From a virus (Duplodnaviria; Heunggongvirae; Uroviricota; Caudoviricetes): DNA of 8,693 nt. Shown in pieces: positions 2,265 through 8,693 of this stretch. The stretch lies in IMG/VR virus record IMGVR_UViG_2684622582_000003, positions 1-8,693 of that record, one strand, 5' to 3'. A program made the position numbers and the translations under genes. Each line of letters begins with the position of its first letter. Position 1 is the stretch's first letter. The notes beneath the pieces were generated by a model. The model had not been told where the DNA came from. It searched no databases and saw nothing but the letters and a program-made list of their open reading frames with translations.

Positions 2265-2984
2265 CCGGCGCGCCGCATCAATGCGCTGCTGCATGTCCTG
2301 GCGAACCTCTGACGGCAGGGATTCAAACTGATTGCCATCCACCTTGTGCGATCCGGCGTAAATAAGCGTGATATCAACACCGGCCTGCGCCAGATGACCG
2401 GCATAGCTGACATGGCTCATCATCACACCAATGGAGCCGATACGTGATGTCTGGGTAATCAGCCGTCGGGAACAGGCCGATGCCAGCAGCATTGCCGCAG
2501 AGCAGGCCGTGTCATTGCACAGCGCCCAGACAGGCTTCTGCTGCCGGAGGCGGTAAATCATGTCAGCGCAGTCAAACGCGCCGGCGGCCTGTCCACCAGG
2601 GCTGTCAATATCCAGCAGTACACCCCGCACCTGGGTATCCGACATTGCCTGCTGAAGACAGGCGACAATGCCGTCATAACCTGTCATTCCGGAAAAAGGC
2701 CGCATGCCACCCAGCCGGTGCACCAGCGTGCCTGTCACCGGCAGTACAGCAATACCATTCACCACCCTGTAAACACGGGCCGGTCGTTTTCCTCCGGCCA
2801 TGTACTCGTCCGTTTCAGCCAGCATCCCGGGAGCATCAAGCTGTACCTGCTGTTGCGGTACCGAAAGACTTGTCGCACCCATCTCACGCCCCAGCGCGCA
2901 AAAGAAAACCCGCGCATAGGCGGGCTCCAGAAGCAGCGGTTCATTGAATGCTGCTGCAATAATGTGTGAAAGATTACGTCTCAC
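1479..2984 (-). CDS. C: Head maturation protease / scaffold fusion, lambda gpC-like (S49/ClpP-like fold), with expanded C-terminal repeat region
   Basis: 501-aa ORF (lambda C is 439 aa). N-terminal two-thirds collinear with recalled gpC (AFNEPLxLEPAYARVFFCAL, NGIAVLPVxGTL, YSGMTGYxGI, GGxxAGAFDCAD, KPVWAL, GSIGVMMxH, ITLIYxGSHKVDGN). Start is GTG at 2984 with GAGGAG SD about 10 nt upstream; overlaps the B stop by 11 nt. Confidence 0.9.
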   Translation of the reverse strand: MRRNLSHIIAAAFNEPLLLEPAYARVFFCALGREMGATSLSVPQQQVQLDAPGMLAETDEYMAGGKRPARVYRVVNGIAVLPVTGTLVHRLGGMRPFSGMTGYDGIVACLQQAMSDTQVRGVLLDIDSPGGQAAGAFDCADMIYRLRQQKPVWALCNDTACSAAMLLASACSRRLITQTSRIGSIGVMMSHVSYAGHLAQAGVDITLIYAGSHKVDGNQFESLPSEVRQDMQQRIDAARRMFAEKVAMYTGLSVDTVMGTEAAVFEGQSGIEAGLADELINASDAISVMAATLNTHDTGGTMPQLTATEAVAQENQRVMGILTCQEAKGREQLASMLAGQQGMSVEQARAILAAAAPQQPEASPLSEADRIMACEEAKGREQLAATLAAMPDMTVEKARPILAASPRADAGLSLRDQIMALDEAKGAEAQAEKLAACPGMSVENARAVLAAASGKAEPVSASTTSMFERFMANHSPAAVQGGMSQTSADGDADVKMLMAMP

Positions 2985-4566
2985 GTGGTGTTGTCTCCTC
3001 TTCCGGCCTGCGACTCTCCGCTATCTGCTGCTGATACGCCTGCGCTATCCACACCGGGCGTGAGAGCCCGGCTTTTTCCCGCTCTGCGGATTCCCTGACC
3101 TGCTGGCGGAAAATGTCCTGATAATCCTCGCCCATCAGTGCCAGTTCTTTCTCATACGTGCTCAGTCCGGCCTCAATGCGCATCACCGACTCCTGAACCT
3201 CCTTGAGTCCATCGATGGCCATTCTTCCGGAGCCAATCCACTCTGCCCGTGACCAGGCTGAACGCGCCTGATAAAAATCAAAACGCGCCCGTGGCGGACG
3301 AATAATCCCCCGAAGAAGCGCCTCTTCCAGCCAGCAGGAAAACATCTGCGTGGCCAGCCGGGACGCAATAAATTTTCGTCGCCCCATAAAATAACGCCAC
3401 GACTCATTGGCTGAGGCACGGGCACTTGAGTAACTGACCTTCGAGTAATCACGGGACAACTGTTCGTAGGAAACGCCAAGACCGGCGGCGATATACCGCA
3501 GCAGCGCCTGTTCAAGCGCAGAAAATCCATTATCTGAATCCTGCGCAGTCTGCAATTTCAAATCATCCCCGGGGAAAAGGTGCGGAATTTTGACACCGCC
3601 CAGCGTCACGTTATTCGTGTCATACCAGCGGGTGAACTTCTCCAGAATATTAATGAGCGGATTATCCTGCTGACTCTGCGGTGCACCCGCGATATATTCA
3701 AAGGCCTTTTCGGTATCGAGTTCACTTTCAATCGTCGCTGCATACATCGCCTTCACTATGGCCGACTGAAGCTGCGTGGTCTGCAGGGAATCGAGCATTT
3801 TCAGCCGTTCCATGACGCTGTAAAACTGATTAGCCCCACGGGTCTGCCCGTCCTCAACCGGCTCGAAAATATGCAGCATGGCCGGACGCCCGGTGGGAAG
3901 TTCACGCGGGATCCGTTCCCATCGTCCACTACCAGAGAACGGAAAATCATCCTCACAGATATGGTACGCAACGGCCCGTCCATACCGATCGACTTCCACC
4001 CCGGCCCGCAGGAAACGGTTACCCATACCGTGTCCCGGCGTGTCCACCCGTTTAGGGCTCACGGCTTTAAAACGCGTGCGGAATAACCGCGTGGTTTCCG
4101 TATCCCAGACCGGCTGCACAAAGATTTCACCGTTAAATGCATGAACGCCCACACCTTCACGGATAAATTCCGTAAAGGTGCGTTTCCCTTCCACATCGAT
4201 CTCGCCAAACATTCCTTCCGCGTATTCCGACCAGGCCGCCTCCACCTCATCGACAAAGATTTTTGCCGCGGACTCCCGCATCCCAAGCCAGCGCCAGTTC
4301 GGACGGTAACTAATAAGAAACATGTGCCCGACAATGTGATCCTTATGCAGGGCCACCGCATTGGCCGCTATACCGTTATTGCGTACCAGATCATCTGCAC
4401 GGGCATTCCCCAGACGCAACGCAGGCAGCAGGGCAGCATCAACACCCTGCGCCGGTGGTAACCACTCGGCCATTTGCCCGCCAAATCCTGCGCCGCCCCC
4501 GTTGTAGCTGAGACTCTCACGAAGCGGAACGCCGTTCACATCAATCAGGACTGGCGTTCGTTTCAT
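2974..4566 (-). CDS. B: Portal protein, lambda gpB-like
   Basis: 530-aa ORF (lambda B is 533 aa). N-terminus matches recalled gpB (GGGxGFGGQ, VDAALLPxxxxGNARADDLVRNNGxAANAxxLHxDHIVG). The ATG start overlaps the W stop as ATGA. Confidence 0.95.
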   Translation of the reverse strand: MKRTPVLIDVNGVPLRESLSYNGGGAGFGGQMAEWLPPAQGVDAALLPALRLGNARADDLVRNNGIAANAVALHKDHIVGHMFLISYRPNWRWLGMRESAAKIFVDEVEAAWSEYAEGMFGEIDVEGKRTFTEFIREGVGVHAFNGEIFVQPVWDTETTRLFRTRFKAVSPKRVDTPGHGMGNRFLRAGVEVDRYGRAVAYHICEDDFPFSGSGRWERIPRELPTGRPAMLHIFEPVEDGQTRGANQFYSVMERLKMLDSLQTTQLQSAIVKAMYAATIESELDTEKAFEYIAGAPQSQQDNPLINILEKFTRWYDTNNVTLGGVKIPHLFPGDDLKLQTAQDSDNGFSALEQALLRYIAAGLGVSYEQLSRDYSKVSYSSARASANESWRYFMGRRKFIASRLATQMFSCWLEEALLRGIIRPPRARFDFYQARSAWSRAEWIGSGRMAIDGLKEVQESVMRIEAGLSTYEKELALMGEDYQDIFRQQVRESAEREKAGLSRPVWIAQAYQQQIAESRRPEEETTPRET

Positions 4567-4766
4567 AACCTCACTCCCAGCGGGCGACGGCGGCGGGTTG
4601 TCCCCAGTACCGACTCCGCATCATTGATAGCACGATTAAGCTCATCCAGAGAGGCTGCCGTATATTCAATTCTGCGACCATCTTTCTGGACCGACACCAC
4701 CCGTTTACCGGTTAATAAATCAAGACGCGCCTGACGCAGCGCCTGCAGTTCAGCGACTGTTACCAT
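4563..4766 (-). CDS. W: Head-tail joining / DNA-stabilisation protein, lambda gpW-like
   Basis: 67-aa ORF (lambda W is 68 aa) with motifs LxTGKRVxxVQKDGRRxEYTAxS and TxRRR. ATG start at 4766 overlaps the end of A by 17 nt. Confidence 0.9.
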   Translation of the reverse strand: MVTVAELQALRQARLDLLTGKRVVSVQKDGRRIEYTAASLDELNRAINDAESVLGTTRRRRPLGVRL

Positions 4767-6678
4767 TCACTCCTCCGGACAGCTTCGCTGCCAGTTCTTC
4801 AAGGGTTGGCCGGGTCGTCTCTTCTTCCCGGGATTTTGCCAGTACAGCCAAATCAAGCTGCCAGCGTTGCATGGACACACGTAATGCTGCGTAGGCATAC
4901 ACCAGGCAGTCCAGCGCTTCGTTACGCCGCTTTTTGTTATCCCACAGCAGGCGCATCTTTCCTTTTTCCCACTTCTCCACAAGCTCTTCCGCGACCAGTT
5001 GCTGCGCCTCTGTCTGCGAAAAAATCTCCGGATTATCAGGAAAACGGATGGCATACGATGTGGCTTCATCCGCAGGTGTGGGACTGGCTTTCATACGGGC
5101 ATAGAGAATTTCTTTTGCGGTGTCCGTCCCCACTTCACACAGATACACGCCCCGCTGATTGCGGGTTTTCGGCATGGTGATCACCGGCTTGCCATAGACA
5201 GACGCGCCTTTTACCGGCAGCACACGGAAAACACCGTGTTTTTTTGACCTCTGATAGACGATTTCGCCATCGATCCCCCCGGTGTCCCAGCAGACACGGG
5301 AAATGGTCATTTCGGTGCCATCCGCATGGCGGTATTTTTTGTTAATCACCGCGTCCACACGTAACAGCGTCTCTTCCTCATCAGGACGCCCCATAATGAT
5401 GATTTTATCCACCAGAAAAGCTTCCTCTCCCGGTGCCCATCCCCAGACATACATCTCAAAACGGTTTCGCTGCGAGTCAATGCCCGCCGTCAGATAAACC
5501 ACCCTGTCAGGTACCGCCGCCGTGTAGTGCACGACCTTATCCATCAGAACCTGGTGATCGAGTTTTTCGCCTACGGCCTCTTCGTAGGTCTCGCCCAGCG
5601 TGGTGTTCACAAAGGTTTTCAGGCCGTTAGGATCTTTCAGCGCATCCAGCCAGTCATAGACTATCTGTACCCAGGTGGTAAACGGGCTATAGACCGTCCA
5701 GATGTGGAAAGTGATGGATCGCGGTGGCGGCATCTCCTCATCACCCGCGCTGTAAAATGTCAGGCCGTCACGTGTCCACATTCCTGTATTGTCACAAATC
5801 CAGCGCCCGTCAGTCTGGTCAAGTTCCGACTGACGGATCACACAGCCATTATGCTCACACAGGTAATACACCGTTTCCGGTTTACCCTTCTCCCATTTCA
5901 GGCCAAACGGCGTGGATTCATCACCAAACTTCAGATACTGCATCTCCCCACAATGAGGACAAGGAACATAAAACCGCATGAAATGCGCCGACTCGTTAGC
6001 GGCTTTTTCGATCTGGCAGGTGCCTTTGGTTTTGGGCGTCGAGCCGCGTATGGATTTAGGCCATACCGAACCTTCAATACGTTTATCGCCAAGCAGTGTT
6101 GGCGAACCTTCTTTTTCCACATCCGGTTCAAACGAGGAGAGTTCGTCATAACAGACCACATCCACAGATTTTTCACGGTAATTTTTTGCTGCCGCGCCAC
6201 CCAGACACCAGAAACCCACGCCGGAGGAAAAACGCTTCAGGGTGAGCGTATTATCGCGGTGTTTTCTTCCGAACCATGGAGCCAGATCCAGCAATGCAGG
6301 AACATCCCTTATTGTTGGCTCGACATGAGATTTCATGAAATCCTCGGCGGCAGAATCTGTTGGCTGAAAAAGCAGACTGTTACGGGATTTATGCTCAATG
6401 AAATAGGCTTCCACCCCTAACAGCATTTTGGTATAACCGACGCGCGCCGATTTAATCAGATTAATGGTGCGGATCCGGTCATTTCCCATGCTGTTCATAA
6501 TGGCAACCTGAAACGGCAGTGTTTCCCATTTCCCGGGAGTATATGAAGATTCTTTCGGCAGATAATAATGTTGATCAGCCCACTGAACTGTTGTCAGTGG
6601 AACCGGAATATTGAGAGATAAAAGCCCTGTAGCTATCGCACCGGCTGCATTAGCTGCCTTCTGTGCGTCTGAAATCAT
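4750..6678 (-). CDS. A: Terminase large subunit, lambda gpA-like
   Basis: Near full-length collinear similarity to lambda gpA as recalled (WADxxYYLPKES, WETLPFQ, SARVGYxKMLLGV, HVEPTIRD, KRFxxGxGFWCLGG, YDELxxF, [26 protein letters not shown], [39 protein letters not shown]). The ORF track begins at a non-ATG codon at 6720; I place the start at the ATG at 6676-6678 (MISDAQ...), which gives a lambda-like N-terminal length and a lambda-like overlap with Nu1. Confidence 0.93.
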
Positions 6679-7198
6679 CGATCCACCCGCCCACGTTTTT
6701 ACCGACTTTAGCTGCAACATTGGAGGCTTTCGCGATTTCAGTTTTCACCACATCAAGATGTGATGGTGAAATGTCTGGATATTTACGCTGTAACGTCAAC
6801 GGCACACGCACAAGTATCCCCGAAATTTCCTGTGCTACACGTTGCAGAATGAAGGTAAACAATTCAGTTTCCAGAACCATTCCTTCTTCTCGGGCATTTT
6901 TCAGTTCCTGCGCATCTGCCTGTGCTTTTGTGAGTCGGTAGCGCTCATAGTCAATGGTGCCGGGTTGTAAATCTGACTCCGCAGCCGCACGCAAATCGTC
7001 CAGTTCTTTGCGGAGCTTTTCGTTTTCGATATCTTTTTCCCGCTGCGCATACCACTCAATGGCTTCTGCAGAATTGAACATGACCTCAATGCCTTTGCCA
7101 CCCCCCGACAAAACTCTCAGCCCCTGGCTTTGCCAACCAGTAATTGTTCTGACATCGCACTCAAAAATCTCTGCCAATTTCTTTTTATTAACCTTCAC
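6650..7198 (-). CDS. Nu1: Terminase small subunit, lambda gpNu1-like (N-terminal winged-HTH cosB-binding domain)
   Basis: Strong similarity to recalled lambda Nu1 (VNKKxLAxIF, RTIxxWQxQG, VLxGGGKGxEV, ENEKLRxExxxLR, [28 protein letters not shown]). No in-frame ATG aligns with the lambda start; the best fit is GTG at 7196-7198 (GTG-AAG-GTT-AAT against lambda ATG-GAA-GTC-AAC). An alternative GTG lies at 7205-7207. The start is about 176 nt from cosN, as in lambda. Confidence 0.88.
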
Positions 7199-7206
7199 AA
7201 AACACA

Positions 7207-7373
7207 CCTGTCACAAAAAGAAGAAAGGATCTAAAAACGATTTTTTCAGCGAAAAATCACTGCTGCCAGATCCTTTCTTTTTTTAAAAAAGAATCTAGTA
7301 AACAACAAGTTACTCAGAAGAAGAACGGATCTGCTTTTTCCGGGAAAATTTTCATAAATAGCGAAAACCCGCG
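7207..7373. promoter_or_regulatory. cosB: terminase small-subunit binding region with three R-like repeats (R1 about 7215-7231, R2 about 7266-7280 inverted, R3 about 7316-7331) and an AT-rich spacer
   Basis: In lambda orientation the repeats read GATCCGTTCTTCTTCT (R3), AAAGAAAGGATCTGG (R2, inverted) and GATCCTTTCTTCTTTT (R1), in the same order, spacing and orientation as lambda R3/R2/R1 between cosN and Nu1. The AT-rich stretch between R3 and R2 (7281-7310) is where lambda carries its IHF site I1. The core differs from lambda (CGTTTCC). Confidence 0.8.
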
Positions 7374-7385
7374 AGGTCGCCGCCC
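7374..7385. other. cosN cohesive-end segment (12-nt 5' overhang; terminase nick sites flank this interval)
   Basis: The + strand aggtcgccgccc is the reverse complement of lambda's cohesive end GGGCGGCGACCT. Flanks cccgcg (7368-7373) and cgtaac (7386-7391) also match the lambda cosN flanks as recalled. Confidence 0.9.
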
Positions 7386-7634
7386 CGTAACCTGTCGGAT
7401 CGCTGGAAAGGACCCAGTAAATGAGAATAATTATCACTTGCGTTAATATCCTGTTTCTTCCACCCTCGCACAGGACTGGCGAGCATGAGGGACAAACCCG
7501 CGAATCATTAGCGCGGTAAAAACCCGGTGTGCATCGTTTTTGATTATTCCCGCACACTCGCGCAGAAGGAGTTCCCCGTCGGGCTGCGGTCATGGTTAAT
7601 GCGGGAATACGGCGACGATACAGCGCATGATGTG
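7386..7634. other. Noncoding genome right-end segment (expected to contain cosQ near cosN)
   Basis: Lies between the stop of the Rha-like gene and cosN. No convincing ORF; the only ORF here (7246-7593, minus) runs across cosN. cosQ is placed by position only (lambda has it a few tens of bp from cosN on the right-end side); I do not recognise a motif. Confidence 0.4.
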
Positions 7635-8183
7635 TCAGGCTTGAATACCCTTATCGAATCCCGGTAATAAAAACTGTCCCTGCCTTTCCAGGCGTTTCAG
7701 CTTTGCAAGCAATTGAGTTTTTTTCGTTCTTCCCCAGCGATTGAGCAGGCGGCCAGACATACTGGCGACATCCTTCTCTTTCATATACTCCAACATTATG
7801 GCGTTGCGTTCTGCTTCATAACTTTCGCTGTACTTACGGAGTTCTGCTGACATCCAGTTAAAGGCATTTATATAGGCCTCTTTAACGGCGTCGGCTTTTG
7901 CGCCATTAAATCCCATGACCAGCATAACGAAGCCACTAAAGTCCATGCGGTAGTAAATCTGTTTCTTGTCGAAAATCCCTAAATCATTGATTTTTTCGGC
8001 AACGCAAAAGTGCGCTCTCCGGAAATCTTCAGAGCAATGACAATTTTTCAGCGCCCTCAATACGTCCGCATGACGCTTACCAAATGCCTTTGCGATCTGG
8101 AAAGTGTCAGTTACCGGCTCACCCTCTGCTGCGGTAACTAACTGGCGAAAGTCAAAATCAGGAGTCTCAATTAATTCACTCAT
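7635..8183 (-). CDS. Phage regulatory protein, Rha family (N-terminal Rha-like DNA-binding domain), accessory gene between the lysis cassette and cos
   Basis: 182-aa ORF with ATG start and a GAGTAGG SD-like sequence about 12 nt upstream. Motifs FGKRHADVLRAL and MGFNGAKAxxxKEAYINAFNWM fit the Rha / Phage_pRha family signature as I recall it. The C-terminal 70 aa are basic, probably helical, and unassigned. Occupies the Rz-to-cos slot where lambda carries bor. Confidence 0.6.
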   Translation of the reverse strand: MSELIETPDFDFRQLVTAAEGEPVTDTFQIAKAFGKRHADVLRALKNCHCSEDFRRAHFCVAEKINDLGIFDKKQIYYRMDFSGFVMLVMGFNGAKADAVKEAYINAFNWMSAELRKYSESYEAERNAIMLEYMKEKDVASMSGRLLNRWGRTKKTQLLAKLKRLERQGQFLLPGFDKGIQA

Positions 8184-8401: not shown

Positions 8402-8693
8402 TTATTTTAAGCATTGCGTCCTGATGTACTCCTGCAGGTAGTTAACCTGCGCGGTTATCTTGTCGATTCCACTTCGGAGACGGTAATAATTGAGTTCAGC
8501 ATCTGCTGTAAGTCTTGGGCTTTCTCCATCGCCCATGCTGCTGGCTCCGGTCGTTGACTTTGCACAGGTGGCGGCGACTTGCAGGCGCTTACGACCAGCA
8601 GAAACATCAGCACGGAGACTTTCGATAGTCGCGTTAGCATCAGCAAGCTCCTTTGTGTATCTGGCGTCGAGTTCTGCTACATCACGTTGACGC
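8402..8693 (-). CDS. Rz: i-spanin Rz, 3' portion (5' end lies beyond the window)
   Basis: Minus-strand frame translates to RQRDVAELDARYTKELADANATIESLRADVSAGRKRLQVAATCAKSTTGASSMGDGESPRLTADAELNYYRLRSGIDKITAQVNYLQEYIRTQCLK-stop, matching recalled lambda Rz (RQRDVAALDAKYTKELADAK...AAGRRRL...SPRL...QCR). Stop codon TAA at 8402-8404. Confidence 0.9.
   Translation of the reverse strand, partial: RQRDVAELDARYTKELADANATIESLRADVSAGRKRLQVAATCAKSTTGASSMGDGESPRLTADAELNYYRLRSGIDKITAQVNYLQEYIRTQCLK
8455..8640 (-). CDS. Rz1: o-spanin Rz1, outer-membrane lipoprotein, embedded in the +1 frame of Rz
   Basis: ATG at 8638-8640 gives a 61-aa product MLTRLSKVSVLMFLLVVSAC-KSPPPVQSQRPEPAAWAMEK... with signal peptide, lipobox (VSAC) and Pro-rich mature region, like lambda Rz1. 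Entirely inside Rz in a different frame. The ORF track starts two codons upstream at TTG. Confidence 0.85.
   Translation of the reverse strand: MLTRLSKVSVLMFLLVVSACKSPPPVQSQRPEPAAWAMEKAQDLQQMLNSIITVSEVESTR

Follow-up and report, generated by a model that had tools for sequence, protein, structure and literature searches.

A Gifsy-1-class cosB and TerS recognition module on a phage-21-like head-gene block: a probable third packaging specificity among lambda-type cos sites

The window, by which we mean the whole stretch of 8,693 nucleotides analysed here, is identical to NCBI WGS contig CXYT01000023.1 and, read as its reverse complement, is the late region of a lambda-like prophage, with all of the genes listed below on the minus strand. 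The open reading frame list together with Pfam matches gave the major capsid gene (10-1038) and the decoration protein gene (1095-1442), followed in window coordinates by genes for an S49 protease/scaffold protein homologous to gpC/Nu3 (1479-2984), the portal (2974-4566), and gpW (4563-4766). The large terminase subunit TerL, the homolog of gpA/gp2, is encoded at 4750-6720 and carries the Pfam domains GpA_ATPase and GpA_nuclease; public gene calls give it a length of either 642 or 656 aa. The small subunit TerS, the homolog of Nu1/gp1, is a protein of 182 aa encoded at 6650-7198. Beyond TerS come the cos region, a Rha-family gene (7635-8183) that has ORF11CD3 as its C-terminal domain, and finally the end of the lysis cassette, so that the Rha-family gene lies between the lysis cassette and cos. 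An Rz1-type lipoprotein reading frame (8455-8646) is embedded in the Rz reading frame at the window edge (8402-8693 region), and in L221, a locus identical to the window, its counterpart was called with Pfam Rz1. The Rha-family regulator gene is missing from L224, which is otherwise near-identical to the window. In the translated S49 protease/scaffold protein, a repeat of about 33 aa occurs three times in a row, with the form (Q/E/D)EAKG(R/A)E..A..LA....M(S/T)VE.AR.(I/V)LAA.

Positions in the cos region are numbered from bp 1 of the mature left end, which is window position 7385, so that bp n is position 7386 - n. On the minus strand, a cosQ-like GGGTCCT is followed by ...GTTACG, the 12-nt GGGCGGCGACCT, CGCGGG..., and the AT-rich I2 spacer. 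The heptamer GGGTCCT (7409-7415, minus strand) is located upstream of the nick site, and the right end of lambda has the same heptamer at an equal distance from its cohesive end; we take the 7-bp cosQ element to be this heptamer. The 7-bp cosQ is highly conserved (PMC4669245). The cohesive end of cosN, GGGCGGCGACCT (bp 1-12; 7374-7385, minus strand), is identical to those of lambda and phage 21. The I2-equivalent spacer (7336-7368, minus strand), which includes TATGAAAATTTT, occupies bp 18-50, the definition of I2 (PMC4856287), and can be matched base for base with lambda and phage 21 with few substitutions. A probable equivalent of I1, the IHF-like site AAACAACAAGTTA (7300-7312, plus strand), lies between R3 and R2. 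It has one mismatch to WATCAANNNNTTR, and since four such matches occur in the window against 6.3 expected, the match is not significant alone; its position is, however, that of AAACATTAAGTTA in lambda, on the same strand, and the two sequences are nearly identical.

The R elements are given here as 15-mers in the lambda orientation. R3 (CAGATCCGTTCTTCT; 7319-7333, minus strand) covers bp 53-67, starting at bp 53 as in lambda and phage 21, and has GATC at bp 55-58. R2 (CAGATCCTTTCTTTT; 7267-7281, plus strand) covers bp 105-119 and is inverted relative to R3 and R1, and R1 (TAGATCCTTTCTTCT; 7219-7233, minus strand) covers bp 153-167. The starts at bp 53, 105 (inverted), and 153 coincide with those in phage 21 (53/105/153), and lambda has R3 at bp 53 and R2 at bp 106. 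A repeat search gave matching inverted and direct pairs for R1, R2, and R3. When all 8,693 bp were scanned for AGATCCKTTCTT with at most one mismatch, only three matches were found, all of them exact and all within cosB (7221-7232, minus strand; 7268-7279, plus strand; 7321-7332, minus strand). Shuffled sequences gave a mean of 0.05 matches, and three matches were reached in none of 200 shuffles. The core AGATCC(G/T)TTCTT is present in three copies in the window, exclusively in cosB. Each R element contains a single GATC (at 7228, 7269, and 7328), and the full window, with 37 GATCs where 34.4 would be expected, is unremarkable in this respect.

In lambda (J02459), CGTTTCCGTTCTTCT is located at bp 53 and the inverted CGTTTCCTTTCTTTT at bp 106, which in the R register read CGTTTCC(G/T)TTCT. 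A preliminary description of this DNA had proposed that the cosB repeats carry a GATCC core, and with it a Dam site in every repeat, where lambda has CGTTTCC. All three points agree with the sequences: the core is present in three exact copies at the R positions, each R-like repeat has its GATC, and lambda does read CGTTTCC and not GATCC there. The longer motif that the description gave as shared, GATCC(G/T)TTCTTCT, is exact in R3 and R1, but R2 departs from it by one base (TTTT vs TTCT), and the range that it assigned to the repeats, 7215-7331, drops 2 nt of R3 at its end. Judged by its sequence motifs, the region is a complete lambda-type cos (cosQ, cosN, I2, R3, a putative I1, R2, and R1), after which the small terminase gene begins.

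TerS belongs to the Phage_Nu1 family (PF07471, E = 3e-85), and the winged helix-turn-helix at its N-terminus was matched to PDB entries 1J9I (E = 1e-22) and 6HN7 (E = 3e-39). The GTG start at 7198 was fixed by homology to MKVNKK of phage 21 gp1, in agreement with the public gene calls. The sequence of the DNA-binding domain (DBD) matches the structures of lambda (1J9I and 7LW0), phage 21 (7LWR), and Gifsy-1 (7LXS), where the assignment of 7LW0, 7LWR, and 7LXS to the three DBDs was made by sequence matching. Alignment to lambda gpNu1 (1J9I and 7LW0) places the recognition helix of the winged helix-turn-helix, RTITGWQS, at codons 17-24 (7127-7150, minus strand). The helix extends over residues 17-24 (PMC9026076). 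TerS residues 15-26 differ from the lambda sequence SIRTIQNWQEQG in this alignment, and the helix of the window (VRTITGWQS) has Thr20, Gly21, and Ser24 where that of lambda has Q20, N21, and E24. The helix thus differs from lambda in step with the R core, as the preliminary description had it. The same description regarded the protein as otherwise highly lambda-like, and this view did not hold: over the full length, TerS shares 97 of 181 residues (54%) with lambda Nu1 but 159 of 182 with phage 21 gp1.

Relative to phage 21, the differences cluster in TerS residues 1-54, of which 37 are identical in gp1. In residues 55-182, the identity to gp1 rises to 122 of 128 (95%), and we therefore regard the TerL-binding domain as 21-type; residues 111-182, the 21-type TerL-binding C-terminal domain, share 69 of 72 residues with gp1. 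The C-terminal TerL-binding part of lambda is unrelated in detail to that of the window (26 of 71 residues identical). The same boundary is seen in the DNA. Megablast against phage 21 (OL657228) gave 93% identity from position 10 to about 7063, where the alignment ends, and this position corresponds to TerS codon ~45. The stretch that megablast cannot align to phage 21 (7064-7345, minus strand) comprises cosB and the first ~45 codons of TerS. Because the phage 21 alignment stops at codon ~45, cosB and the DBD constitute a separate, swapped module set in a phage-21 head-gene block.

The system that most resembles this module is that of Salmonella phage Gifsy-1 (TerS STM2609; DBD structure 7LXS). 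The Gifsy-1 R elements, CAGATCCGTTCTTCT, the inverted CAGATCCTTTCTTTT, and CAGATCCTTTCCTGT, have CAGATCC(G/T)TTC in R3, inverted R2, and R1 at the spacing seen in the window. Its helix, DVRTVTAWQSQG, is of the same type with Thr20 and Ser24, and its wing is likewise GGGKG. AGATCC(G/T)TTC in R3, R2, and R1 of the window and a helix of the form RT(I/V)T(G/A)WQS led us to assign the cosB and the recognition helix to the Gifsy-1 recognition class. The pairing of R core and helix is not unprecedented, as Gifsy-1 already has this R core and this helix type. The two modules nevertheless differ in sequence: their DNA is only ~72% identical, 38 of 54 DBD residues are shared, and the helices differ at residues 19 (I/V) and 21 (G/A). 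In addition, the Gifsy-1 cohesive end, GGGCGGCAGCGT, differs at bp 8, 9, and 11 from that of the window, which is lambda's, and Gifsy-1 TerS has a shorter C-terminus (164 aa as annotated). In the literature, we found no test of the specificity of Gifsy-1 TerS and no mention of its GATC.

Phage 21 resembles the window in its architecture, the R positions 53/105/153, the head genes (93% DNA identity), and Ser24. Its R elements (CGTGTCGGTACTTCT, CATGTCGGACCTTTA, and CATGTCGGGCCTTGT), however, have the core (C)(G/A)TGTCGG(T/A/G)(A/C)CTT, in which bp 56 and bp 59 are both G, its helix region reads DPRTIERWQSQ (PRTIERWQS against VRTITGWQS), and its wing is KGSKG. A phage-21-type cosB, which the C-terminus of TerS suggested, was considered and ruled out because the R elements and the helix of phage 21 differ from those of the window. 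Lambda resembles the window in other respects. The cosN, the cosQ heptamer, and the I2 layout are identical, the I1-like site is nearly so, bp 57-67 of R3 are the same, and the GGGKG wing including Lys35 is shared. On the other hand, lambda reads GTT at bp 54-56, where the window reads AGA, and the TerS proteins are only 54% identical.

The discrimination between lambda and phage 21 depends critically on bp 56 and bp 59 of R3 and on helix residues 20 and 24 of TerS; lambda Glu24 prefers T·A at bp 56, where the G·C found in phage 21 clashes with it (PMC4669245). We took these assignments from that work and checked the bases on the lambda and phage 21 sequences. At bp 56 and bp 59, lambda has T and C, phage 21 has G and G, and the window has A and C. 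The window thus shares one of the two critical base pairs with lambda and neither with phage 21. Of residues 20 and 24, it has neither in common with lambda and only residue 24 in common with phage 21. In addition, bp 54-55 are A and G in the window and G and T in both lambda and phage 21. Compared with lambda, the window has AGA at bp 54-56, Thr20, and Ser24, and C at bp 59 is the only match; compared with phage 21, it has A56, C59, and the helix VRTITGWQS, and only Ser24 is common to both. Since both the critical base pairs and the critical residues set the window apart from lambda and phage 21, the complete lambda-type cos, with its Gifsy-1-class module on a phage-21-like block, most likely represents a third packaging specificity.

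We considered whether the specificity might not be truly distinct, that is, whether TerS of the window recognizes the cosB of lambda, TerS of lambda that of the window, or both. The CC(G/T)TTCTTCT half and bp 58-59 are common to the R elements of the two, bp 57-67 of R3 are identical, and lambda DNA is packaged by the N15 terminase although the helix of the latter is different (PMC4669245). The identity of the 3′ half of the R elements (CCGTTCTTCT) would allow one-way recognition of the kind shown by N15 on lambda. The two R3 sequences nevertheless differ at three consecutive positions, bp 54-56 (AGA in the window, GTT in lambda), which include the critical contact of lambda Glu24 at bp 56, and residue 24 of the window is Ser. 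Moreover, in the survey described below, a lambda-type helix occurs together with an AGATCC core, or vice versa, in none of ~130 loci. We consider such cross-recognition unlikely, and a distinct specificity remains the preferred reading.

The survey compared helix residues 16-25 with R3 bp 53-62, anchored on the conserved I2 motif, in two independently collected sets of IMG/VR loci, to which reference phages were added. The first set consisted of 80 loci collected by TerS similarity, and the second of 120 loci collected by the exact R3 14-mer AGATCCGTTCTTCT, 38 of which had a TerS gene in the right place. The correspondence between helix class and R3 core class had no exception across ~130 loci, which are related to each other and so do not count as independent events. 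The helix RT[IV][TS][GAST]WQ[SN]Q accompanies the core AGATCC (50 loci), RTIE[RG]WQ[SMT]Q preceded by Pro16 accompanies (G/A)(T/A)GTCGG (72 loci), RTIQNWQ[ED]Q accompanies CGTTTC[CT] (8 loci), and RTIDRWQTQ accompanies CATGTCAG (one locus, PhiR5_1). Residue 20 is fully class-specific: T or S with AGATCC, E with GTCGG, Q with CGTTTC, and D in PhiR5_1. The survey yields a simple code, in which the class of the helix predicts the R core in ~130 loci. The PhiR5_1 locus (Escherichia phage PhiR5_1, PV340545.1) is a fourth helix/R pairing, IRTIDRWQTQ with the R3 CATGTCAGTTCTTCT. The 5′ half of this R3 resembles phage 21 and the 3′ half resembles lambda, and the pairing may represent a further packaging specificity.

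A natural chimera narrows down the part of TerS concerned. The IMG/VR loci L029 and L030 have the TerS backbone and wing of the window but 21-type residues 13-26, and their R3, R2, and R1 are all 21-type. The type of the R elements therefore follows the turn-plus-recognition-helix segment (TerS residues 13-26) and travels with it. The recombination joints lie inside the 54-residue DNA-binding domain. The matched change of core and helix, the covariation of helix and R3, and this chimera all point to a distinct packaging specificity as the best reading of the sequences, in line with the suggestion made in the preliminary description.

We presume the following course of events. Recombination would have grafted a Gifsy-1-class site together with its reader onto a phage-21-like terminase and head-gene block. 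By analogy with lambda and phage 21, IHF probably bends the stretch separating R3 from R2, and the complex on the bent DNA would anchor TerL, which would nick cosN at a distance of 47 bp. The GATC of every R element would simply belong to the recognition sequence. The locus is a clean natural example of a specificity module that moved as a unit between head-gene blocks otherwise 93% identical. Packaging specificity sets which DNA the terminase puts into capsids, and with it the phages, satellites (PICIs), and hybrid prophages that can mobilize each other. The practical value of the present locus is modest, because Gifsy-1 already represents the class and the structure of its DBD has been solved.

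A functional site is assumed in this scheme, and we also weighed the possibility that it is a non-functional relic in a decaying prophage. In most of the close E. coli relatives, the sequence found where cosN should lie is not that of lambda, and TerS is truncated in the SerU-LTIIb relative. In the window itself, however, cosQ and cosN are canonical, R1, R2, and R3 are intact, and the reading frames of TerS, TerL, the portal, the protease, the decoration protein, and the capsid protein are all full length. Furthermore, the TerS allele and cos of the window recur on 24 contigs from different samples, comprising other isolates and metagenomes. A relic is thus very improbable, and we continue to regard the site as a probably working cos of the Gifsy-1 class.

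The conserved GATC raises a further question, namely whether Dam methylation controls TerS binding or cos cleavage at Gifsy-1-class cosB, as it does at P1 pac, with N6-methyladenine at bp 56/57 being either required for, or inhibitory to, recognition by the Ser24/Thr20 helix; packaging would then depend on how far the replicating DNA is methylated. With GATC at bp 55-58, the methylatable adenines are at bp 56 in the top strand and opposite T57 in the bottom strand. NMR located TerS contacts at bp 55-63 (PMC9026076), and genetics implicates bp 56, 58, and 59 (PMC9026076; PMC4669245). The idea is mechanistically concrete because both adenines fall inside the contacted bp 55-63 and one of them is at a specificity position; the methyl groups would protrude into the major groove, where the recognition helix reads. 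GATC is present in three of three R elements, and all 32 distinct cosB sequences in the class retain AGATCC in R3 and R1, among them those with a divergent TerS (L111 and L118). P1 pac provides a precedent: its IHF site is flanked by seven TGATC(A/G) repeats, and adenine methylation regulates cleavage there (PMC10028697; PMC12707154). It resembles the window in having repeated elements for the packaging protein, each with a GATC, around an IHF site, or an IHF-like one in the window, by the cleavage site (PMC10028697). In contrast to the window, P1 packages by the headful mechanism with the unrelated PacA/PacB and seven hexamers, and methylation dependence has been demonstrated for P1 pac and is hypothetical for the window.

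Several observations weaken the case for methylation. A few percent of cores of 9-12 bp are expected to include a GATC by chance, several specificity classes exist, and the three GATCs count as one event because they are copies of one binding motif. Direct TerS contacts explain the conservation of GATC equally well. GATC is absent from R2 in L025 (CAGTTCC) and in L160 and L168 (CACTTCC), where R3 and R1 keep AGATCC, and from R3 in L222 (CAGAACC). The loss in R2 of L025, L160, and L168 would fit a view of R2 as the repeat under the weakest constraint. L222 (GCA_017764445.1, DADSVK010000123.1) has a TerS identical to that of the window with CAGAACC in place of CAGATCC in R3, so that the R element considered most critical has no GATC in this natural isolate, and the change may be a sequencing error or belong to a defective prophage. 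No annotated methyltransferase was found in the window or in Gifsy-1, and our literature search turned up nothing that connects Dam with cos sites and terminase. On balance, control of TerS binding or cos cleavage by Dam seems doubtful to us, and the more specific proposal, that TerS of the Gifsy-1 class reads the GATC with methylated adenines at bp 56/57 so that the Dam state tunes cos recognition, is put forward as a tentative one. Lambda DNA from lytic growth is only partly Dam-methylated, and a TerS of this class would therefore meet mixed methylation states. If the proposal is true, it would be the first epigenetic control of packaging resembling that of P1 pac in a lambda-type cos phage; the Dam state could time packaging relative to replication or tell new concatemers from the fully methylated cos sites of resident prophages.

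The distribution of the class differs among the collections searched. Cos sites with a Gifsy-1-class cosB and DBD were found in 10 of 5426 complete E. coli genomes, including that with the SerU-LTIIb prophage, each with at most 91% identity in a long-query megablast, and the class is rare in E. coli. In IMG/VR, a Gifsy-1-like subgroup and a third subgroup (GVDVRTITAWQSQG) are frequent. A scan of genome contigs with TerS as the query gave seven loci, which were distant and of the lambda/phi80 type, with none of the Gifsy-1 class among them.

The cohesive-end region shows a variation of its own. The 12 nt at the position of cosN (loci L017-L027 and L004) are not lambda-like in 11 of the 12 closest IMG/VR relatives or in SerU-LTIIb, where sequences such as GGGGTCTGGGGA and GGGTACGCGTA are found instead. 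These relatives keep the I2, cosB, and TerS DBD typical of the class, and they are either decayed prophages or phages with other cohesive ends.
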